From NCBI GenBank assembly GCA_021513695.1, contig CP084166.1, positions 2,624,001 to 2,688,000 on the forward strand: a DNA stretch of 64,000 bases, in the 5' to 3' direction. Below the pieces are notes generated by a model. It saw only the letters and a list, made by a program, of their open reading frames with translations, made no database searches and was not told where the DNA came from. This DNA is from Candidatus Heimdallarchaeum aukensis (lineage in GTDB: Archaea > Asgardarchaeota > Heimdallarchaeia > Heimdallarchaeales > Heimdallarchaeaceae). The position numbers and the translations under genes were made by a program. Shown here piece after piece: positions 17,895 through 41,310 of this stretch (positions are counted from its first letter, which is position 1; each line of letters begins with the position of its first letter).

Positions 17895-18770
17895 ATGAGT
17901 GATATACTTAATATTGTCCTTCTTGGCTTGGAAAACGCAGGGAAAACAACTCTTCTAAACACTTTAAAAGGAGAACAATTTAGAGACACAAGTACAACAA
18001 TTGGAATTAATGTAGACCTTATTAATTATAATGGATATAAATTTCAAGCAATTGATGTAGGAGGACAAAGAGTATTTCGAGACACATTATGGCCGCAATA
18101 TACGAAACTTGCTAGTGGAGTAATCTTTATTTTTGATATATTTGATAAAGGAAAGTTAAGCGAAGCAAAAAAATGGTTTGATGAAATCCAGACATGGGTA
18201 ACAAAAAAGGCTGTTTTTCTTTTTTTAGCAAATAAGATAGATCTAAAAGAAGAAAGAAAAGATTTTATGTCACTTGATGATGTAATAAAGAGCTTCAACT
18301 TAGAAAGATTTTCTCTTTATCCTGAGCAAAGTTTCAGAATTTTTGAAGTTTCAGCAAAAACTGGAGAAAATGTGGATGTGGCAATTAAATGGTTGTTTGA
18401 GAAATTGTCAGAGCAAGTTAGAAAACAAACAAATCTTTCTTTCATATTCGTCCATAATAGTGATTTTGAATTAATATATGTTAATTCTGAAAAAGTGAAG
18501 GTTTTAGAAAAACTACTGTTAAAACATGTTTCTCAACTTAGAAAAAATAACATGAAAACTTCATTTCTAAATGTCGATGAGTATAAATTATTTTTTTATG
18601 TTGAACCTCAATTCAGCATTATTTTTGGGGCAAAAAATATATACAAACAGTTCTTCCTAAATGTAGCCTTAGAAATAGCTAATGAGCTTAAAACAAACCA
18701 TCTGCCATTAACTGAATATAAACCAGAACTTGATGGAATAATAAGTAGAATTTTAATAAAGGAAAAATAA
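17895..18770 (+). CDS. Small Ras/Arf-superfamily GTPase fused to a C-terminal roadblock/longin-like domain
   Basis: G1 GLENAGKTTLLN, G3 DVGGQ, G4 ANKIDL and G5 SAKTG fall in the first ~170 aa. The last ~120 aa (FIFVHNSDFELIYVN...KLFFYVEP...FLNVALEIANEL) show a beta-alpha-beta-beta-alpha pattern. Confidence 0.6.
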   Translation: MSDILNIVLLGLENAGKTTLLNTLKGEQFRDTSTTIGINVDLINYNGYKFQAIDVGGQRVFRDTLWPQYTKLASGVIFIFDIFDKGKLSEAKKWFDEIQTWVTKKAVFLFLANKIDLKEERKDFMSLDDVIKSFNLERFSLYPEQSFRIFEVSAKTGENVDVAIKWLFEKLSEQVRKQTNLSFIFVHNSDFELIYVNSEKVKVLEKLLLKHVSQLRKNNMKTSFLNVDEYKLFFYVEPQFSIIFGAKNIYKQFFLNVALEIANELKTNHLPLTEYKPELDGIISRILIKEK

Positions 18771-25851: not shown

Positions 25852-26490
25852 CTAATCATACAACTCTCGTTTAATAGTCTCAAAGATTCCATCTATTCTG
25901 TCGTACATTTCCTCTCCGCCTTTTAAAGCAGAGATAGCTTCCCAACCATGAAATGATTTCGGATAACGTTCTTTTAGATGTTCCCAAGCAGCTTTGAAGT
26001 TTTCTCTCAAGTATTCATCTGCTTTTGCCTTGCTAAAATCGAGTAAGTCAATTTTATTGACTACTAGGAAAAAGATAGCTTTGATTTTTCTTGCCTTGCG
26101 CTCAGCTTTGACAATATCATCATCTAAAGTCATAAGAAAATAATTGCTAACTTGAGTTAAAGCATCAATTTGAACTTTAGTGTCTTGAGTGGGATCAATC
26201 ATAAAGATTATACCATTAGTTTTATAGTCTTGCATTGCTTTTTTCCAATAAGGCCATAAAGACATATCTCCAGGACAGTCTACTGCCATAACTTTGTAAG
26301 TTCTGTATTTTTCTAAGCTCAAAGAAGATTTGTATTGTTGGCTTTTTAGCTTTATACGCTTAGAATGCACTTCAATTTGCGTAGTTGGACTTATATCTTC
26401 TATTTCTTCTCCCTTGATTCTTTTAATTAGAGTAGTTTTACCCACTCCTGTTGCACCTAAAACTGTGATTGATAATTCACGAGTTAACAT
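25852..26490 (-). CDS. Small GTPase (Arf/Rag-like, Ras superfamily)
   Basis: G1 GATGVGKTTLIKR, DCPGD, the LWPYW switch-II region resembling Arf's LWRHY, and NKIDLL (NKxD). Confidence 0.65.
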   Translation of the reverse strand: MLTRELSITVLGATGVGKTTLIKRIKGEEIEDISPTTQIEVHSKRIKLKSQQYKSSLSLEKYRTYKVMAVDCPGDMSLWPYWKKAMQDYKTNGIIFMIDPTQDTKVQIDALTQVSNYFLMTLDDDIVKAERKARKIKAIFFLVVNKIDLLDFSKAKADEYLRENFKAAWEHLKERYPKSFHGWEAISALKGGEEMYDRIDGIFETIKRELYD

Positions 26491-26904
26491 TGTTATTCAA
26501 CTGAATATTTAGTTTAATCAGTATATCAATCTTTTGTAAAGATTAAGTAAACACTTTATTCAAAAAATCAAAAGAATCAAATAATAGATGAAAAAAATCA
26601 ATAATTAGATATAATTAGCTTCTTAAGTATGATGAAAAAATCAAAAAGATATTTTTTTATTAATTATTGTTGGTGACTAAAAAAGCTAAAAACAAGTTTA
26701 ATTCGGTCTTAAATTTATTTTTTTTTAATTATTATTTTTTTTAAATTTTTGTATTTTTCACACTGAAAAAAACATTATTCTAAAGTGTTTTTTTAACGCT
26801 TCTAACTTGATTTTTTATAGGTTCCAATATTTGAGAAAAGTTTATAAGGAGACTGTTGGTGTTCTTGTAGATTATTTAAAATTAAGTTAATATGTGAATA
26901 GTAT
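26491..26904. promoter_or_regulatory. 414-bp extremely AT-rich divergent intergenic region (small GTPase on the minus strand, oxidoreductase-hydrogenase cluster on the plus strand) with TATA-like tttaaaatt at ~26875-26883, about 25 nt upstream of the korD ATG
   Basis: Longest non-coding stretch in the window. T/A runs and a TATA-box-like element close to the start codon suggest a short-leader archaeal promoter. Not verified. Confidence 0.3.
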
Positions 26905-27237
26905 ATGAATTATACTGTCGATTATGATAAAAAAAAGAAAAAAGCGGAGTGGCCCGCTTTCATAAATATAAGTGAATGGAAACAAGAACACCCCGTAATA
27001 TATCTAATCCCAGAACGTTGCAAAGCTTGTAGTTTCTGCATAAATTACTGCCCTGAACAGATTCTTGAATTTTCTCCAGATATTAATCAAAAGGGCTATC
27101 ATCTTCCCAAACTTAAAGAGGGTAAAGACTTTTCTAACTGTGCAGAGTGTCATTTTTGTGAATTAATTTGTCCTGAATTCGCTATTTTTGTGAAGGTTCC
27201 GGAAAAACAAGACGAGGAGGAGAAACCAAGTGAGTGA
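26905..27237 (+). CDS. 2-oxoacid:ferredoxin oxidoreductase, delta (2x[4Fe-4S] ferredoxin) subunit
   Basis: Two CxxCxxCxxxCP motifs (CKACSFCINYCP, CAECHFCELICP). First gene of a D-A-B-G set. Substrate specificity (2-oxoglutarate vs pyruvate/2-ketoisovalerate) is not decidable by eye. Confidence 0.75.
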   Translation: MNYTVDYDKKKKKAEWPAFINISEWKQEHPVIYLIPERCKACSFCINYCPEQILEFSPDINQKGYHLPKLKEGKDFSNCAECHFCELICPEFAIFVKVPEKQDEEEKPSE

Positions 27238-28402
27238 AACAATTCAGAAAGAAGAAGATAGAACTGTTTTAACTGGTGAATATTTCACAACTGGAAACCT
27301 AGCTGCGGCAGAAGGCGCTTTAGCTGCTGGATGTAAGTTCTTCGGCGGTTATCCCATTACTCCCAGTTCAGAGATTGCAGAACACATGTCTTATCGTCTT
27401 CCCCAAGTTGGAGGTCATTTCCTTCAATTCGAGGATGAAATAGCTTCTATCGTATCAATTCTTGGAGCAAGTTGGGGCGGATGGAAATCTATGACTGCAA
27501 CTTCTGGTCCAGGTTACTCTTTAATGTTGGAAAATATAGGTCTAGGAATAATGACTGAAACTCCTTGTGTTATAGTTAATGTTCAACGAGGAGGTCCTTC
27601 TACTGGTTTACCAACACTAGTAGGCCAACAAGATATCCAACAAACAAGGTGGGGGTCTCATGGAGATTATGAAGTAATCGCTTTAGCACCAAATAGTGTT
27701 CAAGAATGCTTTGATTTAACTATTGTTGCTTTTAATTATGCTGAAAAATATAGGTTGCCAGTAACCTTGCTAATGGATGAAACACTTGGTCATATGAGTG
27801 AAAAGTTGATTATTCCAACAAAAGATGAAATCAAGGTTATTAATAGAAAAAAACCCAAAGATGATCCATCGATACACCTTCCCTATAAAGCAGATGACGA
27901 TCTAGTTCCTCCCATGGCTACTGCAGGGGAAGGATATCGTGTAATGACTACAGGATTAACACATGATGAACGAGGATATCCTGTTTTAAATGCGGAAACC
28001 CAAGAAAAACTTATACGAAGATTAATCGACAAAATAAGAAAAAATAAAGATGATATAATCCTGCTCGAGGAATATAAGCTCGAGGACGCAGAAATAGCGC
28101 TAATCTCTTTTGGTATAAGCGCACGTGCTTCAAAGGGTGCAATTGAGCTTGCAAGAAAGAAAGGAATAAAGGTTGGCCTTTTAAGACTTATTACTATTTG
28201 GCCGTTTGCAGATGAACAAATAGAGAAACTTGCTGAACAAGTGGGTAATATTTTTGTTGTTGAAATTAATGCAGGACAAGTTACAAGAGAGGTTCAGAGA
28301 GCTGTAAAAGGTAAAGCAGAAGTTCATGGTGTATTTAAGTATGGTGGAGCCATTCACACACCAGAAGAAATTTTGTCTGAAATCGAGAGGAGAATAAAAT
28401 GA
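27230..28402 (+). CDS. 2-oxoacid:ferredoxin oxidoreductase, alpha subunit
   Basis: GTG start preceded by GAGGAGGAG. GGYPITPSSEI and the overall PorA/KorA layout. Overlaps korD by 8 nt. Confidence 0.8.
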   Translation: MSETIQKEEDRTVLTGEYFTTGNLAAAEGALAAGCKFFGGYPITPSSEIAEHMSYRLPQVGGHFLQFEDEIASIVSILGASWGGWKSMTATSGPGYSLMLENIGLGIMTETPCVIVNVQRGGPSTGLPTLVGQQDIQQTRWGSHGDYEVIALAPNSVQECFDLTIVAFNYAEKYRLPVTLLMDETLGHMSEKLIIPTKDEIKVINRKKPKDDPSIHLPYKADDDLVPPMATAGEGYRVMTTGLTHDERGYPVLNAETQEKLIRRLIDKIRKNKDDIILLEEYKLEDAEIALISFGISARASKGAIELARKKGIKVGLLRLITIWPFADEQIEKLAEQVGNIFVVEINAGQVTREVQRAVKGKAEVHGVFKYGGAIHTPEEILSEIERRIK

Positions 28403-29259
28403 CAGATAAATTATTAAAAGCAGTAGAACATCCTTCTGATGTATTTTTAAGACCAGGGAGAATACCACATATTTGGTGTCCTGGGTGCAGTTTAGGTTCA
28501 GTAACGAACGTGATTATTGAAGCAATAAAACAAAGTGGAATTGATTCCAAAAAAATATCTATTATCTCTGGAATTGGTTGTACTGGAAGAGCTGCAGGAT
28601 ACCTAAACTTTGATTCCTTTCACACTACACATGGTAGAGCTATTCCCTTCGCAATAGGCTTAAGTGTAACTGATCCTGAAAGAAAAGTTATTGTTATTTC
28701 AGGAGATGGTGATCTAGCTTCTATCGGAGGTAATCATCTAATTCATGGAGCTAGAAGAAATGCAGATATTACAGTTATTTGTGTAAATAACTTTCAATAT
28801 GGAATGACAGGGGGGCAAGTAGGTCCTACCTCCTATGAGGGACAATTTCAAACTACTGCACCATATGGAAATGTTGAACATCCATTTGACCTACCGGGTT
28901 TGGCTTATTCATGTGGAGCAACTTTTGTAGCAAGGTGGACAGCTCTTGATGTCAGAAGAATGAAAGAGACAATTATTGAAGCAATTCTACATAAAGGATT
29001 TTCTTTTGTAGAAATATTGGGCTCATGTCCTACAACTTATGGACGAAGAAATCAATTAAGAGAAGGTTTAGAGATTTTAGAAAATTTCAGAAAGAGAACA
29101 GTATTGAAACACGGAGCTGACCCAACAAAAACAGAAATTTCCAAGGATGGACCTATAATTGTTGGAAAATTTGTTGAAATCAAAGATAAATCGACTTTAA
29201 CTGATAATTTGCTTAAAGTTCAAAGAATAGCAAAAGCGACAAAGGCAAGGGGGTTATAA
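28399..29259 (+). CDS. 2-oxoacid:ferredoxin oxidoreductase, beta (TPP-binding) subunit
   Basis: Cys ligands CPGCSLG...GIGCTGRA, and the TPP motif GDGDLASIGGNHLIHGARRNADITVICVNNFQYGMTGGQ. ATGA overlap with the alpha subunit. Confidence 0.85.
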   Translation: MTDKLLKAVEHPSDVFLRPGRIPHIWCPGCSLGSVTNVIIEAIKQSGIDSKKISIISGIGCTGRAAGYLNFDSFHTTHGRAIPFAIGLSVTDPERKVIVISGDGDLASIGGNHLIHGARRNADITVICVNNFQYGMTGGQVGPTSYEGQFQTTAPYGNVEHPFDLPGLAYSCGATFVARWTALDVRRMKETIIEAILHKGFSFVEILGSCPTTYGRRNQLREGLEILENFRKRTVLKHGADPTKTEISKDGPIIVGKFVEIKDKSTLTDNLLKVQRIAKATKARGL

Positions 29260-29262
29260 AAA

Positions 29263-29802
29263 GTGCCAAGAGTAGAAATACGTTTTGCTGGTTTTGGAGG
29301 ACAAGGTATTGGTCTTCTAGGGCGATTAGTAGGAGAGGCAATTGCTTTGTATATGGAAGGAAAAAATGCAATAATGACACAGAGCTATGGACCTGAAAGT
29401 AGAGGTGGAGCGAGTAGTTCTGATGTTGTGATTGACGAAGGAGAGATAGCCTACCCTAAAGCGACACATTACGATTATTTAGTTGTTATGTCAGAGGAAG
29501 CCTATCACAAATATATCCCAAATTTAAAAGAAGGAGGAACATTATTTGTAGAAGAGAATCTAGTTATCCTCGATGAACACGCTAAAAAAGCTGGAAAAAT
29601 CTTCAAAATTCCCGCAACTAAAATAGCAGAAGAAATAGGAAGTAGTTTATATGCTAATATAGCAATGTTGGGTTTTTTCTGTGCAAACACTGATATCGTA
29701 TCTGAGGATGCGCTAAAGAAGGTAATAAGAGAAAAAGTGAAGGCGCGGTTTGTTAAGAACAATCTTATTGCTTTCGAAAAAGGGAAAAACTATAAGGGAT
29801 GA
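29263..29802 (+). CDS. 2-oxoacid:ferredoxin oxidoreductase, gamma subunit
   Basis: 179 aa, FAGFGGQGIGLLG motif typical of the gamma subunits. GTG start. Confidence 0.75.
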   Translation: MPRVEIRFAGFGGQGIGLLGRLVGEAIALYMEGKNAIMTQSYGPESRGGASSSDVVIDEGEIAYPKATHYDYLVVMSEEAYHKYIPNLKEGGTLFVEENLVILDEHAKKAGKIFKIPATKIAEEIGSSLYANIAMLGFFCANTDIVSEDALKKVIREKVKARFVKNNLIAFEKGKNYKG

Positions 29803-31772
29803 AAAAAGAAATGGATGAGAAAAAGAAAGTTGGAGTATTTATTTGTCATTGCGGAAGAAATATCGCTCAAACTGTTGATATAGAAAAACTAATGGAAGAA
29901 GTTAGAGAAAAGTATGATGTTGAGTTTGTAGAAGATAATATGTACATGTGTTCTGATCCTGGACAAAATCTGTTAAAAGAATCAATTCAAGCAAAGAATT
30001 TAGATCGAGTAATTGTTGCTGCTTGCTCTAGAGATATGCATGAACCAACATTTAGAAGTGCAGCACAAGAAGCTGGTTTAAATCCGTATTTAGTCGAAAT
30101 TGCTAATATTAGAGAACAAGTCAGTTGGGTTCATGATGATAAAGAAAAAGCCACAGAAAAAGCTTCAAAGATTATCGGTTCAACAATCGAAAAAGTAGTA
30201 AGAGATGAACCTTTAGAACCTCTACAAATTCCAGTTGTTCAAAGAGCATTAGTTATTGGTGGTGGAATAGCAGGAATTCAAGCTGCTCTTGACATCGCTG
30301 ATGCAGGATATGAAGTGACTCTAGTTGAAAAATCTCCTACTATTGGAGGACACATGGCACAATTAGCTGAAACATTTCCCACTTTGGATTGTAGTCAATG
30401 TATTTTAACACCAAAAATGGTTGCATTAAGTCGCCATCCAAAAATTAATTTGCTGACAACCAGTGAAGTTGTAAGTGTAGAAGGTTATGTGGGAAATTTC
30501 AAAGTACAGATAAGAAAAAATCCAAGGTATGTTGATGTTGATAAATGTAATCTCTGTGATGATTGTACAGCTGTATGTCCTGTAGTTGTTCATGATGAAT
30601 ACAATCAGGGTTTAGCTCCAAGGAAAGCTATCTACATTCCATTTCCGCAAGCTGTTCCTGCATCATATGTGATTGACGAAGCAACTTGTTTGGGAATTGA
30701 CCCTCTAATTTGTTCTAAATGTAAAGATGTTTGTTTAGTTGAAGCAATAGACTTTGATATGCAACCAGAAATTATTGAAGAAGAATTTGGCGCCATAGTT
30801 GTAGCTACTGGGTATGATATCTATCCAATAGAAAATATAGGAGAATATGGGTATGGTTCCCATCCAGATATTATATCTGGATTAGATTTTGAAAGGTTAT
30901 TATCTGCAAATGGACCTACACAAGGAGTTATAAGAAGACCTTCAGACGGAAAGATTCCAAAAACCGTAGTTTTTGTTCATTGTGCTGGTTCAAGAGACCC
31001 TGCTAAACATTTACCTTATTGTTCCAAGATTTGTTGTATGTATTCTACTAAACACGCTTTGCAGTATAAACATCTTGTTCATGATGGTACTGCAATCAAC
31101 TTTTATATTGATGTAAGAACAGCAGGAAAAGATTACGAAGAATTCTATAAACGAGCAGCAGAAGAAGAGCAAGTGATTTATGTTCGAGGAAAAGTCTCAG
31201 AGATAATAGAAGATGGAGATCAGCTTCTAGTTAAAGGTGTGGATACATTATTAGGGGAAGCAGTAGAAGTTCATGCTGATCTAGTGGTTCTAGCTACAGG
31301 ACTAGTTCCAAGTAAAGGAACACAGGAAATCTCACATCTTTTGAAGTTATCTTGTGATAGTAAAGGATTTCTAAAAGAAGCACATCCAAAGTTAAAACCT
31401 GTTGAATCAGCTCTATCGGGTATTTTTATTGCTGGAACTGCTTCCGGACCAAAAGATATCCCCGAGACTGTTGCCCAAGCTTCTGGAGCGGCAGCAAAAG
31501 CTGCAACGATTCTGGCCTCTGAATATCTTGAACGAGAACCTCAAATTGCTCAAGTAGACCCAACAACCTGTGGTGTATGTCATACTTGTATTCATGTTTG
31601 TCCATATGGCGCAATTTATCTAGATGAGGTTGTAGGAAGAATAACTGTTCGAGAAGCATTATGCGAAGGATGTGGAAGTTGTGCAGCAGCTTGTCCTTCT
31701 GGTAGCATTGAATTAAAGAACTCTACTTCTGAAGGAATTAGAGCGAGAATTAAAGCATTATTGCAAGGGTGA
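29799..31772 (+). CDS. hdrA: Heterodisulfide reductase subunit A (FAD, multiple [4Fe-4S])
   Basis: FICHCGRNIA N-terminal Cys cluster, FAD-binding GGGIAGIQAALDIADAGYEVTLVEKSPTIGG and four CxxCxxCxxxCP ferredoxin motifs. ATGA overlap with the preceding gene. Confidence 0.85.
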   Translation: MKKEMDEKKKVGVFICHCGRNIAQTVDIEKLMEEVREKYDVEFVEDNMYMCSDPGQNLLKESIQAKNLDRVIVAACSRDMHEPTFRSAAQEAGLNPYLVEIANIREQVSWVHDDKEKATEKASKIIGSTIEKVVRDEPLEPLQIPVVQRALVIGGGIAGIQAALDIADAGYEVTLVEKSPTIGGHMAQLAETFPTLDCSQCILTPKMVALSRHPKINLLTTSEVVSVEGYVGNFKVQIRKNPRYVDVDKCNLCDDCTAVCPVVVHDEYNQGLAPRKAIYIPFPQAVPASYVIDEATCLGIDPLICSKCKDVCLVEAIDFDMQPEIIEEEFGAIVVATGYDIYPIENIGEYGYGSHPDIISGLDFERLLSANGPTQGVIRRPSDGKIPKTVVFVHCAGSRDPAKHLPYCSKICCMYSTKHALQYKHLVHDGTAINFYIDVRTAGKDYEEFYKRAAEEEQVIYVRGKVSEIIEDGDQLLVKGVDTLLGEAVEVHADLVVLATGLVPSKGTQEISHLLKLSCDSKGFLKEAHPKLKPVESALSGIFIAGTASGPKDIPETVAQASGAAAKAATILASEYLEREPQIAQVDPTTCGVCHTCIHVCPYGAIYLDEVVGRITVREALCEGCGSCAAACPSGSIELKNSTSEGIRARIKALLQG

Positions 31773-31777
31773 GAATA

Positions 31778-32242
31778 ATGAGTACATCAAAGCAAGAACA
31801 AGAATCAGGTATAAAAAACCCAGATCCTAAGATTGTCCTTTTCTTATGCCGATGGTGTTCAGGAAAGGGAGCAGATCTAGCAGGAACGTCAAGATTAAGT
31901 TATCCTCCCAATGTTTTACCAATAATGGTAAATTGTACATCAAGAATTGATCCAAGATTTGTAGTAGAAGCTTTTCTTGATGGAGCTGATGGTGTTCTAG
32001 TGACTGGCTGTCACTTTGGTGATTGTCACTATAAGACTGGTAATTACAAAGCATATAGACGTCTTTCGCTAGTCGCAAAGTTGTTAAAACAAGTTGGGGT
32101 AAATCCTAAGAGATTTAGATTGACTTGGATATCAGCTACAGAAGCAGCAAAATTCGTAGAAGTGACTACAGAGATGGTAAATGATCTGAAAAAACTTCCT
32201 CCTTACTGGAGAAATGGAAATGGAGGTAATACCAATGAATAA
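31778..32242 (+). CDS. mvhD: Methyl-viologen-reducing hydrogenase delta subunit
   Basis: ILFLCRWCSGKGADLAG...VTGCHFGDCHY, the MvhD/FlpD family Cys pattern. The ATG at 31778 lies downstream of the track's GTG. Confidence 0.8.
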   Translation: MSTSKQEQESGIKNPDPKIVLFLCRWCSGKGADLAGTSRLSYPPNVLPIMVNCTSRIDPRFVVEAFLDGADGVLVTGCHFGDCHYKTGNYKAYRRLSLVAKLLKQVGVNPKRFRLTWISATEAAKFVEVTTEMVNDLKKLPPYWRNGNGGNTNE

Positions 32243-33233
32243 ATTAAAGGTTGCAGTGGCTCTTGGCGCAACTTGTGCAGGTTGTGACGTGGCTATCTTA
32301 GATTTGAATGAAAAAATACTAGATGTTATAGAGATAGTAGATTTTGTTTTCTGGCCAACAGCTATGGATTTCAAGCTTGAAGATCTAAAGGCATTAAAAG
32401 ATGGTGAAGTAGACGTAGGTTTATACCATGGAGCTATAGGTACAGAAGAAGATGAAGAAATAGCAAAAATATTAAGAAAGAAGTCGAAAGTAGTAGTGGC
32501 CTTTGGAGCTTGTGCTAATTTTGGTGGGATACCAAGTCTAACAAATATGCCTTATGAATCAAAAATATTCGATGTGGTTTATAAGGAAAGTCCATCTACT
32601 TCAAATCCTGAAGGAACTGTACCTCTAAAAGAAACAGAGGTAGAAGGAACAAAGTTGACTTTACCTGGAATTAGAAAAAGAGCAGATTCTTTGAATAGTG
32701 TTATCGATGTAGATTATTACGTTCCAGGCTGTCCTCCTATGGTTCCTTTGATAGAACAAGTGGTAGACATTTTGAGAGTTTTTGTTGAAAAAGGAACTTT
32801 ACCTCCTAAAGGAGCTGTTATCGCTGGGCAAGATACACTATGTAAGGAATGCGGAAGAACTAAACCAGAAACCATCTCTTACACAGAGTTTCTCTCTCCA
32901 CAAGAAGTGAAAGAGATTGACCCTGACCTTTGTCTTCTATCACAAGGAATTTTGTGTTTAGGACCAGCAACACGTTCTGGTTGTGGAGGATTATGCACAA
33001 GCATGAATGTTGGTTGTAGAGGATGTTTAGGACCAACAGATAAAGTTGATGATCATGGTCTAAAAATGATTTCAGCTCTAACATCACTTTTGGACGTAGA
33101 GCATGAAGAAGAGTATACAGAAGAGGAACTAGATAAATTAATAGAAAAAATCCCAGACCCATTAGGAACATTTTATCGATTTACTTATGGAGTCTCCATG
33201 ATCTCTAAATTACATCCTGATATGGAGGAATAA
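32235..33233 (+). CDS. mvhG: [NiFe] hydrogenase small subunit (F420-non-reducing, Mvh-type)
   Basis: VAVALGATCAGCDVAILD proximal-cluster Cys motif and further Cys clusters. GGAGGT SD 7 nt upstream of the ATG at 32235. The track ORF starts at an in-frame ATG at 32214. Confidence 0.8.
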   Translation: MNKLKVAVALGATCAGCDVAILDLNEKILDVIEIVDFVFWPTAMDFKLEDLKALKDGEVDVGLYHGAIGTEEDEEIAKILRKKSKVVVAFGACANFGGIPSLTNMPYESKIFDVVYKESPSTSNPEGTVPLKETEVEGTKLTLPGIRKRADSLNSVIDVDYYVPGCPPMVPLIEQVVDILRVFVEKGTLPPKGAVIAGQDTLCKECGRTKPETISYTEFLSPQEVKEIDPDLCLLSQGILCLGPATRSGCGGLCTSMNVGCRGCLGPTDKVDDHGLKMISALTSLLDVEHEEEYTEEELDKLIEKIPDPLGTFYRFTYGVSMISKLHPDMEE

Positions 33234-33235
33234 AA

Positions 33236-34723
33236 ATGAATCAAAAATTAAATCCAAATATCGTGACTATTGAGCCAGTCACAAGATTAGAAGGATTAGC
33301 AAAAATAACAGTACTTCTTAATGATGAAGGAAATGTAAAAGATGCTTTTTATCAAGTAGTAGAACTCAGAGGTTTTGAGCGTTTTGTTCAAGGAAGACCA
33401 ATTGAGGAAGTATTGAGAATCACACCAAGAATATGTGGTGTATGCCCCATACCTCATCATCTTGCACCAGCAAAAGCAGCAGATAGGGTATATGGGGTCG
33501 ACCCTCCTAAAACTGCAAAATTATTAAGAGAAATGCTAGCTTTGGGACATATTGTTCATAGCCATATTTTGCATTTCTATGCTTTTGCTCTTCCTGATTT
33601 TGTACTAGGAGAAAAGAAAGAACCAGGAACGCATAACATAATTGGTATAGCAAAAGCATTTCCTGATGTGGCGAAAGCTGCCATTAAAGCAAGAGGAGAT
33701 GCCCAAAAAATACAAGCAATGATTGGTGCAAAAGCAACTCATCCTGTTACTGTAATTCCAGGAGGAATAAGTAAAGGAGTAACGAAGGAAGATACAGAAA
33801 AGATATTAGAAATGAGCAAGAATATCGTTGAATTCGGTAAACTGGGTCTTAAGGTCTTTGAAGATTTAGTAGTTAAAAATAAAGATCAAATGGATCTTAT
33901 AAACAGTGACGCCTATCAGATGGATACCTATTATATGTCAATTGTAGGCCCCGATAATACGCTCGATTTCTATAATAGTCAAACAGTTAGAGTAATTGAC
34001 AGTAAAGGAAAAGAATTTGCAAAATTTGAAGCAGAAGATTATTTAGACCATTTAGATGAACATGTTGAACCATGGACATATCTCAAGTTCCCCTATTTGA
34101 AAAAGGTAGGTTGGAAGGGACTTGTTGATGGACCGGATAGTGGTATGTATAGAGTAAATGCTTTAGCACGATTGAACGTTATAGATAAGATAACAACACC
34201 TCTCGCCCAAGAAGCAATGGAAATTATGTATGAAGGTCTAGGTGGAAAACCTGCTCATCACACTTTAGGTTTTAACTGGGCTAGGTTAGTGGAAATACTA
34301 TACAGCGGTGAGAGAATGGTTGAACTAGCTGAAGATCCTGACTTTTATGGTACAAAGTTCAGAGAACAGCTAACCAAGGATATGATTACAGGTGAAGGGG
34401 TGGGAGCCATAGAAGCACCAAGAGGAACTTTATATCATCACTATAAGACTGATAAAGAAGGAAAAGTAACCAAAGCTAATATCATAGTAGCAACCACCAA
34501 CAATAATGCTGCGATTTGTTTAAGTGTGAAAAAAGCCGCTCAAGAAATGATTAAAAACGGTCAGTATAATGAGGATGGCTTAAATAAAATAGAGATGGCT
34601 TTTAGAGCTTATGACCCTTGTTTAGCATGTGCTACCCACGCCATGGTTGGACAAATGCCACTGAAAGTAGAAATATATGATTCTAAGAAAAATAAGATTA
34701 GAGAGTTGACACGTAAACTATGA
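33236..34723 (+). CDS. mvhA: [NiFe] hydrogenase large subunit (group 3c, Mvh-type)
   Basis: N-terminal RICGVCPIPHH (RxCGxC) and C-terminal DPCLACATH (DPCxxCxxH) nickel-binding motifs. A C-terminal extension after the His is consistent with protease processing. Confidence 0.85.
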   Translation: MNQKLNPNIVTIEPVTRLEGLAKITVLLNDEGNVKDAFYQVVELRGFERFVQGRPIEEVLRITPRICGVCPIPHHLAPAKAADRVYGVDPPKTAKLLREMLALGHIVHSHILHFYAFALPDFVLGEKKEPGTHNIIGIAKAFPDVAKAAIKARGDAQKIQAMIGAKATHPVTVIPGGISKGVTKEDTEKILEMSKNIVEFGKLGLKVFEDLVVKNKDQMDLINSDAYQMDTYYMSIVGPDNTLDFYNSQTVRVIDSKGKEFAKFEAEDYLDHLDEHVEPWTYLKFPYLKKVGWKGLVDGPDSGMYRVNALARLNVIDKITTPLAQEAMEIMYEGLGGKPAHHTLGFNWARLVEILYSGERMVELAEDPDFYGTKFREQLTKDMITGEGVGAIEAPRGTLYHHYKTDKEGKVTKANIIVATTNNNAAICLSVKKAAQEMIKNGQYNEDGLNKIEMAFRAYDPCLACATHAMVGQMPLKVEIYDSKKNKIRELTRKL

Positions 34724-35226
34724 AAATAGCAATTATCGGCCTGGGAAACCCCATTGTTGGGGATGATGCTGTCGGAATAAGAGTCTTAGATTACATAAAA
34801 GAGAATAAGACTCTTCCTTCCTTTGTAGACATAATGGTCGATGTAAGCCTTTCTGGAATAGGTTTAGTTGAACTATTCAGAGGATATGACAAAGTGATAA
34901 TAATTGATTCTATGCAATCTAATCAATTTGAACCAGGTACAGTTCTAAGACTCAACCCTGACCAATTTGTAAGTGCATTACACGTTTCAGATTATCATAA
35001 TATGGACTTTTTTACTGCTTACGAATTCGGTAAAGAGATATATGATGATTTACCACCAAATGAACAAATTGTTATCCTCGGAATTGAGATTAATTATATT
35101 ACTGAATTTAGCGATCAGCTATCTCCAGAAATAAAGTCAAAATTTGATGATATTGTAAATGATGTTTATCAATTTATTAAAAAAGAAATAAATCAAGAGA
35201 AGGAGATTATACGCAATGTCCTTTGA
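34720..35226 (+). CDS. Hydrogenase maturation endopeptidase (HycI/HybD/FrhD family)
   Basis: IAIIGLGNPIVGDDAVGIRV N-terminal motif. 168 aa. ATGA overlap with mvhA. Confidence 0.7.
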   Translation: MKIAIIGLGNPIVGDDAVGIRVLDYIKENKTLPSFVDIMVDVSLSGIGLVELFRGYDKVIIIDSMQSNQFEPGTVLRLNPDQFVSALHVSDYHNMDFFTAYEFGKEIYDDLPPNEQIVILGIEINYITEFSDQLSPEIKSKFDDIVNDVYQFIKKEINQEKEIIRNVL

Positions 35227-35629
35227 ATATATAAAAATAGGAAAAGAAGAAAAAGAATTCATTAGTAAAATAGAAGATATCAGCGGACAGAATCTATATG
35301 CATGTTATCAATGTGGAAAATGTACCGCTGGATGTTCTTTTAGTAATCAGATGGATCTTACAGTAAACCAAGTTATTCATAGATTACAACTTGGGCAAAA
35401 AGAAAAAGTGCTGAGTGCAAAGAGTCCTTGGGTATGTGCGAGTTGTTTGACTTGTACAGTTAGATGCCCACGAGATATTGACGTAGCTGCAATAATGGAG
35501 TCAGTAAGAGAATACATTCTACGTTATGAACCTGAGAGAATAGAAAGAATGAAAGTTACAGGAGAAAAAGCTAAAAACTTGCCTAACATTGCCCTCGTAG
35601 GTAGTTTTAGGAAGAATACTGAATTATAA
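35216..35629 (+). CDS. hdrC: Heterodisulfide reductase subunit C-like (2x[4Fe-4S])
   Basis: CYQCGKCTAGCSF and CASCLTCTVRCP motifs. Confidence 0.7.
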   Translation: MSFEYIKIGKEEKEFISKIEDISGQNLYACYQCGKCTAGCSFSNQMDLTVNQVIHRLQLGQKEKVLSAKSPWVCASCLTCTVRCPRDIDVAAIMESVREYILRYEPERIERMKVTGEKAKNLPNIALVGSFRKNTEL

Positions 35630-35641
35630 TAGGTGAATTAA

Positions 35642-36532
35642 ATGAAATATTCATATTTTCCAGGATGTAATCTCAAAACAAATGCAAAGGAATATGAACA
35701 TACAGCTGTTGAAGTTTCTAAAATATTAGATGCTGAACTTGTAGAAATGCCAGTGTTTAATTGCTGTGGGACAGTTCATAGTATGGCTTCAGATAATACT
35801 ATGAGGAGAATCGCCCCTGTACGTATTCTTTCAAGATCAGAAGAGCACCAAAAAGAGTTGGAAGATACAAATAACACAGTTGTAACTCTATGTTCCATGT
35901 GTAGTTCAACACTTAAAGTAGTAAATGAAGAAGTAAAAGAAGATGAAGAAATGCTACAGAAAATAAACTGGCAGCTAGAAAGAGATAACTTAAAATATTC
36001 TGGCCATTCGGAAGTCAAACACTATTTAGAAATACTTAGAGATGAAGTTGGTTTTGAAGAAATTGTTAAAAAGGTTAAAAAACAACTTAAAGGAATGAAA
36101 GTTGCTTCTTATTACGGTTGCATGCTGTTACACCCAGATAAAGCTAAAATTGATGACAGCGAAACACCAACAGTGATGGAAACCCTTACCCTTGCACTCG
36201 GAGCAGAAGTAGTTGATTGGCCTTATTTTAAAACTTGTTGCGGTTCTTACCATGTAGTAGACAAAGAAGATATCGTAAACAATCAAATTCTAAAAATAAC
36301 GGAGGGTGCTAAAAAAAGAGGAGCTAATGCTATAATTACTGCTTGTCCTTTATGTGCCTATAATCTTGATAGTCAGCAAGTATTTTTACAGAAAAAAGGA
36401 ATAATAAAAGAAACTATACCTATCTTCTACTTTACTCAACTTATGGCAATAGCTCTAGGAATAAAATTAGAAAATTTTGAAGATCATCATGTAGATCCTA
36501 AACCTTTACTAAAAAGTCTAGGATTAATTTAA
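35642..36532 (+). CDS. hdrB: Heterodisulfide reductase subunit B-like (two CCG domains)
   Basis: PGC...NCCGT and YYGC...CCGS...CPLC arrangement characteristic of the HdrB/GlpC/SdhE CCG domain. Confidence 0.75.
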   Translation: MKYSYFPGCNLKTNAKEYEHTAVEVSKILDAELVEMPVFNCCGTVHSMASDNTMRRIAPVRILSRSEEHQKELEDTNNTVVTLCSMCSSTLKVVNEEVKEDEEMLQKINWQLERDNLKYSGHSEVKHYLEILRDEVGFEEIVKKVKKQLKGMKVASYYGCMLLHPDKAKIDDSETPTVMETLTLALGAEVVDWPYFKTCCGSYHVVDKEDIVNNQILKITEGAKKRGANAIITACPLCAYNLDSQQVFLQKKGIIKETIPIFYFTQLMAIALGIKLENFEDHHVDPKPLLKSLGLI

Positions 36533-36549
36533 AAAAAAGAGGAATAAAA

Positions 36550-37272
36550 ATGGCAAAAGCAATATCAATGAGAGAAAAAAAGGAAAAACTTGACACAGTA
36601 ACCATATATATTATGGGTCAAGGATACAAAGTTCCTTCTTCTTTAACCATAATGAAAGCAATGGAATATGCTGGTTTTAAACTTAAAAGAGGAGTCGGTT
36701 GTCGTGCAGGTTTTTGTGGAGCATGTGCAACCGTTTATAGAAAATTAGGTGATTACAAAATATATGCTAACTTAGCATGTCAAACTAAAGTCGAAGATGG
36801 GATGTATCTCACACAATTACCTTTTGTTCCTGCTAATAAAGCAGAATACAATCTTGACGAGATTAAACCTTCAGCTTCAACAATGCTCCGTTTCTATCCA
36901 GAAATAGCAAGATGCTTAAGCTGTAATGCTTGTTCAAGAGTGTGCCCACAAGATATACAAGTAATGGACTATGTTCAATACAGCTTGCAAGGGCAAATAG
37001 AAAAAGCAGCAGAACTAGCTTTTGATTGTATTCAATGCGGTCTTTGCGCAATTCGTTGCCCAGCAGAGATTCCTCAATATCATGTGGCGACATTGGCACG
37101 AAGATTACATGGTAAATATCATATGATTGCTCCTGATACTCTAGAACAAAGAGTAAAGGAAATAGAAGAAGGAAAATACGAAAAAGGATTTGAAGAGTTG
37201 ATGTCTCTATCTGAAGAAGAATTGAAGAAACGATACGTTGCAAGAGACTTTATTGATCAGAAAAAGGCGTGA
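36550..37272 (+). CDS. Succinate dehydrogenase/fumarate reductase iron-sulfur subunit-like protein (2Fe-2S plus 2x[4Fe-4S])
   Basis: GCRAGFCGACA (plant-ferredoxin-like cluster as in SdhB), then CLSCNACSRVCP and CIQCGLCAIRCP. Confidence 0.65.
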   Translation: MAKAISMREKKEKLDTVTIYIMGQGYKVPSSLTIMKAMEYAGFKLKRGVGCRAGFCGACATVYRKLGDYKIYANLACQTKVEDGMYLTQLPFVPANKAEYNLDEIKPSASTMLRFYPEIARCLSCNACSRVCPQDIQVMDYVQYSLQGQIEKAAELAFDCIQCGLCAIRCPAEIPQYHVATLARRLHGKYHMIAPDTLEQRVKEIEEGKYEKGFEELMSLSEEELKKRYVARDFIDQKKA

Positions 37273-37277
37273 GAAAA

Positions 37278-38936
37278 ATGATTAGAGGATATCCAGAAAG
37301 TATGAGAAAAAGTATTGACAAAGTCAATAAAACAAGAGATAAGAGAATCGACCAAATTATGAAAGATTTGACTCTTGAAGAACGTGAGAAAGTATTAAAG
37401 GAATTTCACCCTGATTATAATCCAGCATATAAAAGAACTATAAGTTGGGGACAAAATAAAGGCGATTATGTTCCTAATGAAGTCGCAGATATACTGGAAT
37501 CATACCCAATCTATGATCCAGATGAGATAGATTTAAGTCAAATAGATTACGATGTTGGAATATTAATTATTGGTGCAGGAGGAGCTGGAACAGCTGCTGC
37601 TTTATGGTCTGTTTATTCTGGAGTGCCAAATGATAAGATCCTTCTAACAACTAAATTAAGGCTGGGAGACTGTAATACAGTTATGGCACAAGGAGGGATA
37701 CAAGCTGCTGATAGACCAGAAGATTCACCTTTAATTCATTATTTAGATGCTATGGGTGGAGGACACTTCAAAAATAAACCAGAGTTAGTAAAAGCACTTG
37801 TTTCAGATGGTCCCAAAATAATCAAATGGCATAAAGAACTAGGTTTAATGTACGATCAGAATGAAGATGGAAGTTTTGTAGAAAATGCTGGAGGAGGAAC
37901 ATCTAGAAACAGAATGCACTGCGCAAAAGATTATACAGGAATGGAAATTTTCAGAAATCTAAAAGATGAAGTTATTAACAATGAGATACCTTTATTGGAA
38001 TTTTCACCTGCAGTAGAATTGCTAAAAGATGAAAATGGAAGAGTAGCTGGTGCATTGTTATATAATCTAGAAACAAAAGAATATTCCGTCGTAAGAGCAA
38101 AAACAACCATTTTAACAACAGGAGGTTTTGGAAGATTACACATCGCAGGATTTGCAACAACAAATCACTATGGGGCAACAGGAGACGGAATAGTTATGGC
38201 TTATAGAGCAGGAGCTAAACTAAGAGATTTAGACTCAACACAGTTCCACCCAACAGGAGCAGCTTTCCCTGAACAAATAGTAGGTCTGTTAATTACTGAA
38301 AAAGTAAGAAGTTTAGGAGCACAAGTTTTAGGAAAGAATGGAGAACAAATCTGCTATCCACTAGAACCAAGAGATGTAGAGGCTGCTTCAATAATAAGAG
38401 TAACAAAAAGTACAGATAATTATGTTGAAACTCCAACAGGAATGAGAGGAGTCTGGTTAGATAGTCCATTAATTGAAGAAATCAGAGGAAAGGGAACAAT
38501 TGATAAGAATCTTGCTGCAATGAAAAGAATGTTTGCAAGGTTTGATATTGACATGACAGAAGATCCCATACTTGTTCATCCAACCCTTCATTATCAGAAT
38601 GGAGGAGTGGAACTCGATGAAAATGGATATACTTCTGTACCAGGTTTACTAGGCGCAGGTGAAATAAGCGGAGGAGTACATGGAAAGAATCGTCTTATGG
38701 GTAACTCTCTGCTTGAGGTCAATGTTTTCGGTAGACGAGCAGGTATAACTGCTGCTAAAGAATATAAACGAGGTAAAAAACCAGGCAAACTTACTTTATC
38801 ACATGTAAAGAAAACTATTGAGCAATTAGATGCTCTAAACATTAAGAAAAAACGCTTTTCACCTATCATTCTTCCAGAATATCGTAGTGAAGCAGTAAGA
38901 GACAGATTAATTCAACTATTTGAATCTAGTCTCTAA
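37278..38936 (+). CDS. Fumarate reductase/succinate dehydrogenase flavoprotein-family FAD oxidoreductase (TfrA/L-aspartate-oxidase-like), probably non-covalent FAD
   Basis: GILIIGAGGAGTAAAL dinucleotide fold. CNTVMAQGG sits where SdhA has the His that binds FAD covalently (Cys here). HYQNGGV active-site region. ~90-aa N-terminal extension. The ATG at 37278 lies downstream of the track's GTG. Confidence 0.75.
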   Translation: MIRGYPESMRKSIDKVNKTRDKRIDQIMKDLTLEEREKVLKEFHPDYNPAYKRTISWGQNKGDYVPNEVADILESYPIYDPDEIDLSQIDYDVGILIIGAGGAGTAAALWSVYSGVPNDKILLTTKLRLGDCNTVMAQGGIQAADRPEDSPLIHYLDAMGGGHFKNKPELVKALVSDGPKIIKWHKELGLMYDQNEDGSFVENAGGGTSRNRMHCAKDYTGMEIFRNLKDEVINNEIPLLEFSPAVELLKDENGRVAGALLYNLETKEYSVVRAKTTILTTGGFGRLHIAGFATTNHYGATGDGIVMAYRAGAKLRDLDSTQFHPTGAAFPEQIVGLLITEKVRSLGAQVLGKNGEQICYPLEPRDVEAASIIRVTKSTDNYVETPTGMRGVWLDSPLIEEIRGKGTIDKNLAAMKRMFARFDIDMTEDPILVHPTLHYQNGGVELDENGYTSVPGLLGAGEISGGVHGKNRLMGNSLLEVNVFGRRAGITAAKEYKRGKKPGKLTLSHVKKTIEQLDALNIKKKRFSPIILPEYRSEAVRDRLIQLFESSL

Positions 38937-39642
38937 AGTCTTTAACGACTATTTTCTTTTTTTCCATCTCTTTTTCTAATAATCTTATTGGAAATATTTT
39001 TCCATGTGAAGGATAAAGCCATTTTACACCTTCATCTATTAGTTTTTTCCAACTTTCGTATATCTTTTCCTTTTTATTTGCGACTATAGGAAAATAGCTT
39101 CTTCCTGAAAGCAAAGGAAACTTCATAACTATGTCTCCTACAAAAGCATGTTTTTGTTTAAAAATTAATGAAATTGAACCATCAGTATGACCTAATGTAT
39201 GAATTATCTTAGCATCAAATCCATATTCTTTTAGGGAAAATTCATCACTTACTTTAATATCAACAGAAAAAGGAGCTATCTCACGCTTTGTAGAAGAAAA
39301 AATCTTCTTAAGCAATTTATTAGTTAAAACTGCTTCTGGTGTATCTCCCTTTTCCACTAATTCAGCCTCTATTTTGTGCATTAAGACTTTTGCTCCTGTA
39401 ATCTCTTTTATCTCTTTTACAGAACCAATATGGTCTATATGTGCATGTGTAATGATAATTAGCTTGATATTTTCTGGTTGAATAGAATTTTTTTGTAAAA
39501 AATGAACTATCTTTTTATGACTTTTTGGCATTCCTGTATCAACTAAAATACAATTATTATTCTCTTTTATTAGAAAACTATTGACATAACCCAATTTTAT
39601 TCTATGGATAGAAACCATACTTACCAAAGAAAGTTCTTGCAT
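38926..39642 (-). CDS. Metallo-beta-lactamase-fold hydrolase
   Basis: IIITHAHIDHIG (HxHxDH) motif and further His/Asp ligands. 3' end overlaps the flavoprotein gene convergently by 11 nt. Confidence 0.65.
   Translation of the reverse strand: MQELSLVSMVSIHRIKLGYVNSFLIKENNNCILVDTGMPKSHKKIVHFLQKNSIQPENIKLIIITHAHIDHIGSVKEIKEITGAKVLMHKIEAELVEKGDTPEAVLTNKLLKKIFSSTKREIAPFSVDIKVSDEFSLKEYGFDAKIIHTLGHTDGSISLIFKQKHAFVGDIVMKFPLLSGRSYFPIVANKKEKIYESWKKLIDEGVKWLYPSHGKIFPIRLLEKEMEKKKIVVKDFRD

Positions 39643-41310
<1,668 letters not shown>

Follow-up and report, generated by a model that had tools for sequence, protein, structure and literature searches.

What the Hdr complexes of organisms without coenzyme M (CoM) and coenzyme B (CoB) reduce is a long-standing question, and it is raised by a gene cluster of the Asgard archaeon Candidatus Heimdallarchaeum aukensis (GenBank assembly GCA_021513695.1), located in a 64,000-nt stretch of DNA (contig CP084166.1, positions 2,624,001 to 2,688,000 of the forward strand), which was analysed as a whole and is hereafter called the window. 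The cluster comprises 13 genes on the + strand at positions 26905-38936 (ca. 12 kb), i.e. korD, korA, korB and korG of a 2-oxoacid:ferredoxin oxidoreductase (KOR), hdrA, mvhD, mvhG, mvhA, a hydrogenase maturation endopeptidase gene, a short hdrC, an hdrB-like gene, and the genes of an iron-sulfur (FeS) protein and an FrdA-like flavoprotein. The candidate acceptor offered by the cluster is fumarate, which would be reached through the dedicated FeS/flavoprotein pair, and on balance the 13 genes probably encode an H2-driven electron-bifurcating hydrogenase:fumarate reductase that shares ferredoxin with KorDABG, the most likely substrate of the latter being 2-oxoglutarate. Gene identities were assigned by Pfam and NCBIfam profile searches, plus sequence search of PDB. 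All 13 gene labels of an earlier reading of this DNA, made from the letters alone and hereafter called the original prediction, were retained, with Pfam and NCBIfam in agreement.

Proposed acceptor module: short HdrC, HdrB, FeS protein and flavoprotein

The last gene of the cluster carries the argument for fumarate. It encodes a flavoprotein of 552 aa (37278..38936, +; alternative GTG start at 37269), in which FAD_binding_2 (PF00890) was the only Pfam domain and for which the best NCBIfam model was TfrA (NF004900), with 309.4 bits against a cutoff of 718 and covering profile positions 7-425 of 546. When the protein and 14 relatives were aligned with E. coli FrdA, SdhA and NadB from NC_000913, the fumarate-site and proton-donor residues were invariant in the 15 family members (window H324, T340, E341, R344, R365, H438 and R472), their counterparts in E. 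coli FrdA being H233, T245, E246, R249, R288, H356 and R391 (Met1 counted). The FAD-linking His (FrdA His45, and the corresponding His of SdhA) was replaced by an equally invariant Asn (window N133). The C-terminal helical domain (PF02910) was absent, the alignment stopping ca. 130 residues short of the FrdA C-terminus, and a conserved N-terminal extension of ca. 90 aa was present throughout the family. In the AlphaFold2 model (pLDDT 84.6) this extension was confidently folded, and the top PDB fold was that of E. coli FrdA (1kf6_A).

These features suggest a fumarate/succinate enzyme of its own subfamily, with non-covalent FAD expected. Without covalent FAD, E. coli FrdA (His44) and yeast SdhA lose succinate oxidation and keep fumarate reduction. 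By analogy with these mutants, the Asn at the FAD-linking position implies that the flavoprotein should reduce fumarate and oxidise succinate poorly. The original prediction had placed a possible terminal thiol/fumarate-type reductase behind hdrCB, and for fumarate this is supported by the complete site and the expected mode of FAD binding.

The FeS protein (36550..37272, +; 240 aa; Pfam Fer2 and Fer4_9) combines a plant-type [2Fe-2S] site (C51, C56, C59, C77) with two complete CxxCxxCxxxCP motifs. This cluster set is that of the TfrB N-terminal half, to which the protein is weakly matched, and not that of classical SdhB; the PDB sequence search returned generic dicluster domains only. Relatives were collected by scanning GTDB, with each species represented by one genome, and the 80 best loci were annotated by blastp against the window proteins. 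All 12 Cys were invariant in 75 orthologues, and the FeS gene adjoined the flavoprotein gene in 77 of the 80 loci.

Upstream of this pair, the short HdrC (35216..35629, +; 137 aa, two [4Fe-4S] clusters) was matched with PDB 8rvv_C (4e-18) over chain residues 10-102 of 183 only, i.e. the ferredoxin core, the C-terminal ca. 80 residues of methanogen HdrC being missing; its eight Cys were all invariant or nearly so in 58 orthologues. The HdrB-like protein (35642..36532, +) consists of two CCG domains (Pfam) with 10 Cys, which were kept in 59-60 of 60 orthologues, and was matched with PDB 9sfi_C over its full length (1e-32). Its NCBIfam scores for SdhE (151.7 bits) and HdrB (TIGR03288, 148.2 bits; cutoff 345) were about equal and both under cutoff. 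SdhE is the anchor of methylmenaquinol:fumarate reductase. Both the FeS protein and HdrB were matched with just a part of the TfrB model NF004898. On the basis of gene neighbourhoods, short HdrC, HdrB, FeS protein and flavoprotein travel together as what we regard as a conserved four-gene acceptor module.

Three other assignments of the flavoprotein and its partners were tried and rejected. A membrane-bound complex II, type E included, was dismissed because the covalent-FAD His, the C-terminal domain and anchors were lacking (no membrane anchor genes were found within the 13-gene block) and SdhE scored under cutoff. An L-aspartate oxidase (NadB) was dismissed on account of the NadB-specific Glu121 (E. 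coli numbering), which is Gly in all 15 family members, and of the adjoining FeS partner. Against an AprAB/Qmo-like system stood the absence of the AprA model among the best 25 of 35 NCBIfam matches, the complete set of fumarate-site residues, and the [2Fe-2S] domain of the FeS protein, which AprB does not have.

The broader possibility that the modules are co-transcribed but independent, or that the flavoprotein acts on a substrate other than fumarate (e.g. L-aspartate or another enoate), is very improbable. NadB models did reach 261 bits, compared with 309 for TfrA, and urocanate reductase was a distant structural match; however, the exchange of Glu121 and the invariance of all FrdA site residues argue against another substrate, as do the closely associated FeS partner and the frequent neighbourhood of fumarase and sucC genes, and independence is at odds with an association that is kept in many lineages of both domains despite shuffling of gene order.

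Hydrogenase, HdrA and KOR genes

The input side of the cluster is of the Mvh type. The [2Fe-2S] adaptor between hydrogenase and HdrA is encoded by mvhD (31778..32242, +; alternative GTG start at 31769; Pfam FlpD, 2e-49), with five Cys kept in 45 of 46 orthologues. The [NiFe]-hydrogenase small subunit is encoded by mvhG (32235..33233, +; alternative start at 32214; Pfam Oxidored_q6, NCBIfam top match VhuG), and the Mvh/Vhu-type (group 3c-like) large subunit by mvhA (33236..34723, +; NCBIfam VhuA, PDB 5odc_F). In MvhA, both nickel-binding CxxC motifs (RICGVCP and DPCLACATH) are present, and its 29-aa C-terminal tail fits with the co-encoded maturation endopeptidase of the HycI/HybD type (34720..35226, +; Pfam HycI; TIGR00072 with 95 bits, cutoff 47).

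A sulfhydrogenase (group 3b) was rejected on two comparisons, i.e. 400 bits for VhuA versus 184 for ShyA, and 1e-118 for MvhA of M. wolfeii (5odc_F) versus 1e-33 for sulfhydrogenase. The Ca. Heimdallarchaeum genome paper (PMC8813620) describes one membrane-bound and two cytosolic "sulfhydrogenase" complexes, with no Mvh/Hdr listed, and a cytosolic hydrogenase so described may be this Mvh-type one. For Asgard biology the annotation would accordingly change to a hydrogenase of Mvh type, wired to Hdr, fumarate reductase and a 2-oxoglutarate:ferredoxin oxidoreductase (OGOR). This bears on H2 production versus consumption in Heimdall archaea, a matter central to syntrophy models of eukaryogenesis.

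The putative electron-bifurcating FAD/FeS subunit HdrA (29799..31772, +; 657 aa) is full length. It was aligned end to end, with all Cys motifs kept, with 8rvu_a (9e-208; residues 2-655 on 5-653) and 5odc_A (1e-205), and HdrA2 was its top NCBIfam match.

All four canonical KOR subunits are present with their characteristic domains, i.e. delta (korD, 26905..27237, +; 110 aa, two [4Fe-4S] clusters, Pfam Fer4_7), alpha (korA, 27230..28402, +; Pfam POR_N and PFOR_II), the thiamine pyrophosphate-binding beta (korB, 28399..29259, +; Pfam TPP_enzyme_C), and gamma (korG, 29263..29802, +; Pfam POR, NCBIfam PRK08537). KorA passed the cutoff of PRK08659 (572.9 bits, cutoff 411) and was matched in PDB with the Pyrococcus 2-ketoacid:ferredoxin oxidoreductase 1yd7_A (4e-128) and the 2-oxoglutarate synthase 8ys5_A (3e-86). 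2-oxoglutarate-specific models were among the top matches for the delta, alpha and beta subunits, none of them reaching its cutoff: the best matches were OGOR_delta and OorD for korD, and the 2-oxoglutarate ferredoxin oxidoreductase beta model for korB. Gene context (the frd-like pair, sucC, and fumarase) favours 2-oxoglutarate, which we consider the most likely substrate.

Gene context in relatives

At least 594 species genomes contain a relative of the flavoprotein, with 57-65% identity between Asgard proteins and those of distant archaea and bacteria. Complete-context counts were restricted to the 34 of the 80 loci whose flanks each spanned 8 kb or more. In these, the frdB-like FeS gene was always present (34/34), followed by hdrA (31/34), hdrC with hdrB (29/34), korB and korG (24/34), korA (23/34), and mvhA (15/34). 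Among all 80 loci, the FeS gene was immediately preceded by hdrB in 47, and class-I fumarase and sucC genes were neighbours in 13 and 10, respectively.

Gene order was shuffled over more than 20 lineages of both domains, and the association was kept in Asgard archaea, Thermoplasmata, Bathyarchaeia, Acetothermia, Thermotogae, Chloroflexi, Spirochaetota, WOR-3, and others. The kor genes were located 5′ of the block in Asgard archaea, Bathyarchaeia, many Thermoplasmata and others, and 3′ of it in Acetothermia, Thermotogae, Anaerolineae and some other Thermoplasmata. Since the association survives such reordering over many lineages of both domains, a real functional link between the modules is indicated. 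The original prediction had named fortuitous adjacency as its alternative and synteny in other Asgard genomes as a check. Adjacency by chance found no support in the 80 loci: across the lineages named, kor, hdrA/mvhD (with or without mvhGA), hdrCB and the frdBA-like pair stay together. The cluster was also kept in other Asgard genomes, in one of which (L001/L009) 12 or more of the 13 genes follow the window order, its locus beginning within korA. In three loci (L011, L013, labelled Thorarchaeota, and L014), a second hdrA, 65-68% identical to the window HdrA, was situated between mvhA and the protease gene.

The input genes appear to be exchangeable. In place of mvhG and mvhA, FlxA/B/C-like genes were found in six loci of Heimdall archaea (L004-L008, L012) and in another six that come from bacteria or unclassified metagenome-assembled genomes (L019, L022, L032, L038, L051, L054), the entire mvhG-mvhA-protease stretch being swapped. 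The three incoming products are a FAD/NAD-binding protein that includes a [2Fe-2S] domain, a protein with Fer4_22, and an FrhB-like FeS protein; this pattern is that of FlxA/B/C in the NADH dehydrogenase FlxABCD-HdrABC (NAD(P)H input). Identity to the window proteins was 62-67% for HdrA and 51-54% for MvhD in the Flx-type Heimdall loci, compared with 75-76% and 73-79% in the Mvh-type Asgard loci, whereas Kor and the FeS/flavoprotein pair were about equally similar to those of the window in both types. Judged by these identities, HdrA and MvhD diverge together with the input type, and Kor and FrdBA do not. Because of the swap and this co-variation the unit looks modular: Mvh or Flx would form the input module together with MvhD/FlxD and HdrA, the acceptor module would consist of HdrCB and the fumarate reductase pair, and Kor would be the third part. 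A real functional unit with exchangeable H2 or NAD(P)H input is thereby supported by the comparative data.

Proposed mechanism

In the mechanism that we favour, H2 would be oxidised by MvhA/MvhG, of which MvhA would be matured by the co-encoded endopeptidase, and MvhD would hand the electrons to the FAD of HdrA. There the electron pair would be split, one electron going uphill to ferredoxin and the second downhill via short HdrC, the HdrB clusters and the [2Fe-2S]/2x[4Fe-4S] protein to the FAD of the FrdA-like subunit and on to fumarate. By this acceptor route, fumarate would take the role that CoM-S-S-CoB has in methanogens. KorDABG would draw on the same ferredoxin pool. Per turnover, two H2 would reduce one fumarate and one ferredoxin; the succinate would be activated to succinyl-CoA and then carboxylated to 2-oxoglutarate with that one reduced ferredoxin, which gives a 1:1 balance. 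The relevant potentials are -414 mV for H2, ca. +30 mV for fumarate, ca. -500 mV for ferredoxin, and ca. -140 mV for the CoM-S-S-CoB heterodisulfide. Calculated from such textbook values, the reaction of 2 H2 with fumarate and oxidised ferredoxin yields ca. -69 kJ/mol, compared with ca. -36 kJ/mol with the heterodisulfide.

A more specific version is proposed tentatively, and with less confidence than the mechanism itself: HdrB would reduce no disulfide, its non-cubane clusters and the short HdrC would act as a wire, and MvhAGD-HdrA-HdrCB-FrdBA would form one particle, possibly docking KorDABG. A hard-wired HdrA-HdrC-HdrB-FeS-FAD route is simpler than a thiol shuttle, because there is one CCG protein per cluster and the FeS protein is without a CCG domain. 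If true, both reductive steps from fumarate to 2-oxoglutarate would be delivered at 1:1 electron balance, and the "heterodisulfide" of non-methanogen Hdr complexes would be explained for a family spread over both domains. The Heimdall relatives of eukaryotes would also gain an H2-consuming, not merely H2-producing, cytoplasmic redox module.

Several observations weigh against the favoured mechanism. A thiol/disulfide substrate for HdrB is conceivable because the protein keeps all 10 Cys of the disulfide-reducing site. In Methanofastidiosia and Theionarchaea loci the four-gene module was found by itself, with no hdrA/mvh in the fetched flanks, and a thiol-dependent Tfr-like reaction is plausible there. 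The FeS/flavoprotein pair occurred without hdr, mvh and kor in the fetched flanks of five loci (L016, L017, L050, L052 and L060, from WOR-3, Stahlbacteria and unclassified bacteria), of which L016 has a two-subunit class-I fumarase 2 kb upstream of the pair. Above cutoff, Kor fits generic 2-oxoacid models only, and sucCD, fumarase and malate dehydrogenase genes were not found within the 64-kb window. The literature search brought up no purified bifurcating fumarate reductase. For the organism itself, an oxidative partial tricarboxylic acid (TCA) cycle with H2 release has been predicted (PMC8813620), in a text where Hdr, fumarate and oxoglutarate are not mentioned.

The first of these points leads to a soluble thiol shuttle. 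MvhAGD-HdrA-HdrCB would reduce some disulfide while bifurcating to ferredoxin, and HdrCB-FrdBA, as a split thiol:fumarate reductase, would re-oxidise the thiols with fumarate, the single hdrCB pair serving both assemblies. This agrees with the intact CCG cysteines of HdrB, with the free-standing module of Methanofastidiosia and Theionarchaea, with methanogen TfrB, which is a fusion of the same two parts (FeS protein and HdrB each being weakly matched with the TfrB model), and with published annotations, where the pair is named tfrAB. It is nevertheless unlikely: one CCG protein per cluster would have to act in two complexes, the flavoprotein is under the TfrA equivalog cutoff (309 versus 718 bits), and the TfrB fusion architecture is absent. 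Furthermore, most hosts (Asgard archaea, Thermotogae, Acetothermia and others) are, to our knowledge, not known to make CoM or CoB. The same has been stated for Culexarchaeia in the paper on that group.

In the favoured mechanism, fumarate reduction by the bifurcating complex, the flux direction is the least secure step, as the Asn at the FAD site favours fumarate reduction and the published physiology favours oxidation with H2 release. The original prediction had regarded kor as a ferredoxin-generating step; a 2-oxoacid:ferredoxin enzyme stands, while the generating direction is not favoured over the consuming one. Because the flavoprotein points to fumarate reduction, KOR is as likely to consume as to generate reduced ferredoxin.

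The reverse flux would be a catabolic electron confurcation, in which KOR oxidises glutamate-derived 2-oxoglutarate and the Frd-like enzyme oxidises succinate, HdrA merges both streams, and Mvh makes H2, which is removed by a syntrophic partner. It would suit the oxidative partial TCA cycle and H2 release predicted in PMC8813620, and a glutamate dehydrogenase (GDH) gene is situated 1 kb downstream of the cluster. This separate gene (39949..41310, +), beyond the convergent metallo-beta-lactamase-fold gene, was of the NADP type, passing PRK09414 (749.5 bits, cutoff 536), which is a bacterial NADP-specific model, and failing the archaeal GdhA model (223 bits, cutoff 750). It is possibly linked metabolically through 2-oxoglutarate and glutamate, but as a conserved cluster member it was rejected, being beside the cluster in none of the 80 loci, and both its NADP-specific type and this lack of association speak against confurcation. 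So does the mean donor potential, (-500 + 30)/2 or ca. -235 mV, which by calculation reduces protons only at H2 below ca. 0.1-1 Pa. With the FAD-linking His replaced by an invariant Asn, the flavoprotein would moreover belong with the non-covalent FAD enzymes, which lose succinate oxidation. We therefore hold confurcation to be rather unlikely.

Quinone-free fumarate respiration by internal H2 cycling would keep the bifurcating chemistry and run KOR oxidatively: all reduced ferredoxin would be oxidised by an ion-pumping membrane-bound hydrogenase (MBH), and the H2 recycled to fumarate. The inferred balance closes, as one ferredoxin from KOR and one from bifurcation would give two H2 at MBH, and these in turn one reduced fumarate and one reduced ferredoxin; the scheme also reconciles a fumarate-reductase-type flavoprotein with the catabolic, MBH-containing physiology predicted for Heimdallarchaeum. 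However, it is inferential throughout, the window contains no MBH, and the fumarase and sucC neighbours fit a linear fumarate-to-2-oxoglutarate route at least as well, which makes it improbable. Fumarate reduction by H2-driven bifurcation thus stays the preferred reading, and the module, being very widespread among uncultured anaerobes, lends itself well to a first biochemical proof of fumarate-dependent HdrA bifurcation.

Operon structure and flanking signals

The tight packing of the 13 same-strand genes claimed in the original prediction, with junctions of at most 17 nt, was reproduced exactly by the open reading frame (ORF) listing and a junction script. In gene order, the junctions are -8, -4 (ATGA), +3, -4 (ATGA), +5, -8, +2, -4 (ATGA), -11, +12, +17 and +5 nt. 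Start choice was ambiguous for three genes, i.e. mvhD (31769 GTG or 31778 ATG), mvhG (32214 or 32235) and the flavoprotein gene (37269 GTG or 37278 ATG), and with the alternative starts the affected junctions stay between -29 and +5 nt. Elsewhere in the window, just 5 of 16 same-strand neighbour pairs lie within 17 nt of each other (hand count from the gene list), on account of which 12 consecutive junctions this short are distinctive and beyond chance. Shine-Dalgarno strings were present where they had been predicted, with GAGGAGGAG 5′ of korA, GGAGGT 5′ of mvhG and GGAGGA 5′ of mvhA, and most remaining starts in the block were preceded by GGAG or GGTGA-type motifs.

Upstream of the block, the divergent intergenic spacer (26491..26904, +; 414 bp, 19% G+C) is a candidate archaeal promoter region and contains TTTATAA at 26841-26847, 64 nt 5′ of the korD ATG. 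The strict pattern of B recognition element plus TATA box had no match anywhere in the scanned sequence. Plain TTTATA was found six times within the operon genes, thus internal promoters are possible, and this counts against a single unit. Scans with bacterial models were uninformative for an archaeon, with 41 sigma-70 promoter-like sites (54.6 expected by shuffling) and eight hairpin terminator-like sites (7.6 expected). On the sense strand of the block, T runs of at least seven were absent and T6 runs numbered two, i.e. 0.17 per kb compared with 2.0 per kb in the window, a depletion that is not significant against the codon-shuffle expectation of 4.5 +/- 1.9. A T4CT7 tract (38952..38963, +), 16-27 nt past the last stop codon, is a candidate archaeal oligo-T terminator. 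A single transcript for the 13 genes is on these grounds a reasonable inference.

The metallo-beta-lactamase-fold gene (38926-39642, -) converges on the operon and overlaps the flavoprotein gene tail to tail by 11 nt, and the candidate terminator falls within its coding sequence. The G+C content was 0.32-0.39 across 27001-39000, compared with 0.27-0.28 in the flanking kilobases and 0.26-0.33 in most of the window, and the GC skew was persistently positive over the operon. The higher G+C content probably reflects coding constraint and not recent transfer, since it is also higher in the GDH and pyruvate kinase genes.

Other features of the window

Small GTPases of the Arf family, which are typical "eukaryotic signature" proteins of Asgard archaea, are encoded twice, at 17895-18770 (+) and 25852-26490 (-), the latter being the divergent neighbour of the operon. 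Together with the low G+C content of the window, they fit an Asgard archaeon, which belongs to the Heimdall and not to the Loki archaea. In an ORF of 4184 aa (42811-55365, -), residues 352-518 form a topoisomerase VI B transducer domain, which is followed by an extension of over 3000 residues with helix-hairpin-helix-like matches (RAD51D_N, RNA_pol_A_CTD). As the ORF is located directly upstream of the topoisomerase VI A gene (41395-42801, -), it would be a giant Topo VI B fusion. Over window positions 1-64000, no Rfam family was found at gathering score.

Comparison with known systems

Homologues of all six subunits of MvhAGD-HdrABC of hydrogenotrophic methanogens (5ODC; Kaster et al. 2011; Wagner et al. 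2017) are present in the cluster; HdrA and MvhA are aligned over their full length with the solved subunits, and the CCG and FeS cysteines are intact. The Heimdallarchaeum host, however, is not a methanogen, its HdrC is without the C-terminal ca. 80 residues (137 versus ca. 185 aa), its HdrB is under the HdrB equivalog cutoff and ties with SdhE, and the MvhB polyferredoxin gene is absent from the block. The hdrCB genes are here joined to the FeS/flavoprotein pair, and the acceptor is likely fumarate, not CoM-S-S-CoB.

With TfrAB of Methanothermobacter (Heim et al. 1998), the cluster shares a soluble flavoprotein with a fumarate site, TfrA being the top NCBIfam match of the latter, and the combination of a [2Fe-2S] and two full [4Fe-4S] motifs with two CCG domains. 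The TfrB polypeptide is split here into the 240-aa FeS protein and a separate HdrB, with the short HdrC in addition, and the flavoprotein lacks the C-terminal domain and has its family-specific N-terminal extension. Thiol donors are moreover unlikely in this host.

FrdABCDE of Hydrogenobacter thermophilus is reportedly a soluble, five-subunit NADH fumarate reductase of the reductive TCA cycle (the description is ascribed to Miura et al. 2008; KEGG K18556-K18560). Compared by description only, it resembles the present system in being cytoplasmic, multi-subunit and quinone-independent, and it may be a relative for which biochemical data exist; it takes its electrons from NADH and is not known to bifurcate. 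In sizes only, Aquifex FrdA (64 kDa) and FrdB (27 kDa) match the flavoprotein/FeS pair. Bcd-EtfAB and related complexes (Li et al. 2008) share the principle that an exergonic C=C reduction near 0 mV pays for ferredoxin reduction, although they are built on Etf and not on HdrA, with proteins unrelated to the present ones, and use NADH as donor.

Closest are the published clusters of OGOR, thiol:fumarate reductase (TFR), Hdr and either Mvh or Flx, a type to which the window conforms with kor, the frd-like pair, hdrABC and Mvh input co-located. In tubeworm symbionts and Thioflavicoccus mobilis, korABCD-tfrAB-flxABCD-hdrABC clusters of the reductive TCA cycle were proposed to encode a complex feeding OGOR and fumarate reductase (Rubin-Blum et al. 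2019, PMC6315080); the proposal is supported by co-expression (Mitchell et al. 2024, PMC11636981) and restated in a 2026 survey (PMC13147460). Likened by parts list, both systems have OGOR, a Tfr-like fumarate reductase and HdrABC, and would follow the same bifurcation logic, whereas the input is Mvh (H2) here and FlxABC (NADH) there, and the host here is a heterotrophic-looking archaeon. ATP-citrate lyase or other reductive TCA cycle genes (reversible citrate synthase) were not found within the 64-kb window. Ca. Celaenobacter (Cloacimonadota) has a cluster of TFR, OGOR, group 3c Mvh and Hdr, for which it was inferred that the parts are functionally linked and that H2 drives a reductive TCA cycle (Williams et al. 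2021, PMC8542988). Its parts list is essentially the same, H2 input included, but the bacterial cluster additionally has genes of fumarate hydratase and succinyl-CoA synthetase, neither of which is in this window, and its authors assumed a CoM-S-S-CoB-type heterodisulfide intermediate. In the Culexarchaeia paper, SdhA was described next to HdrBC.

As equivalent clusters have been published for bacteria, this is not a new kind of system, and the literature search found no Asgard description of the cluster type. The cluster of Ca. H. aukensis is a Heimdallarchaeia example of a known, still hypothetical cluster type, to which the present analysis adds data on how widely it is conserved, the delimitation of a four-gene acceptor module, the evidence for a fumarate site with non-covalent FAD, and the exchange of Mvh and Flx within Heimdall archaea.

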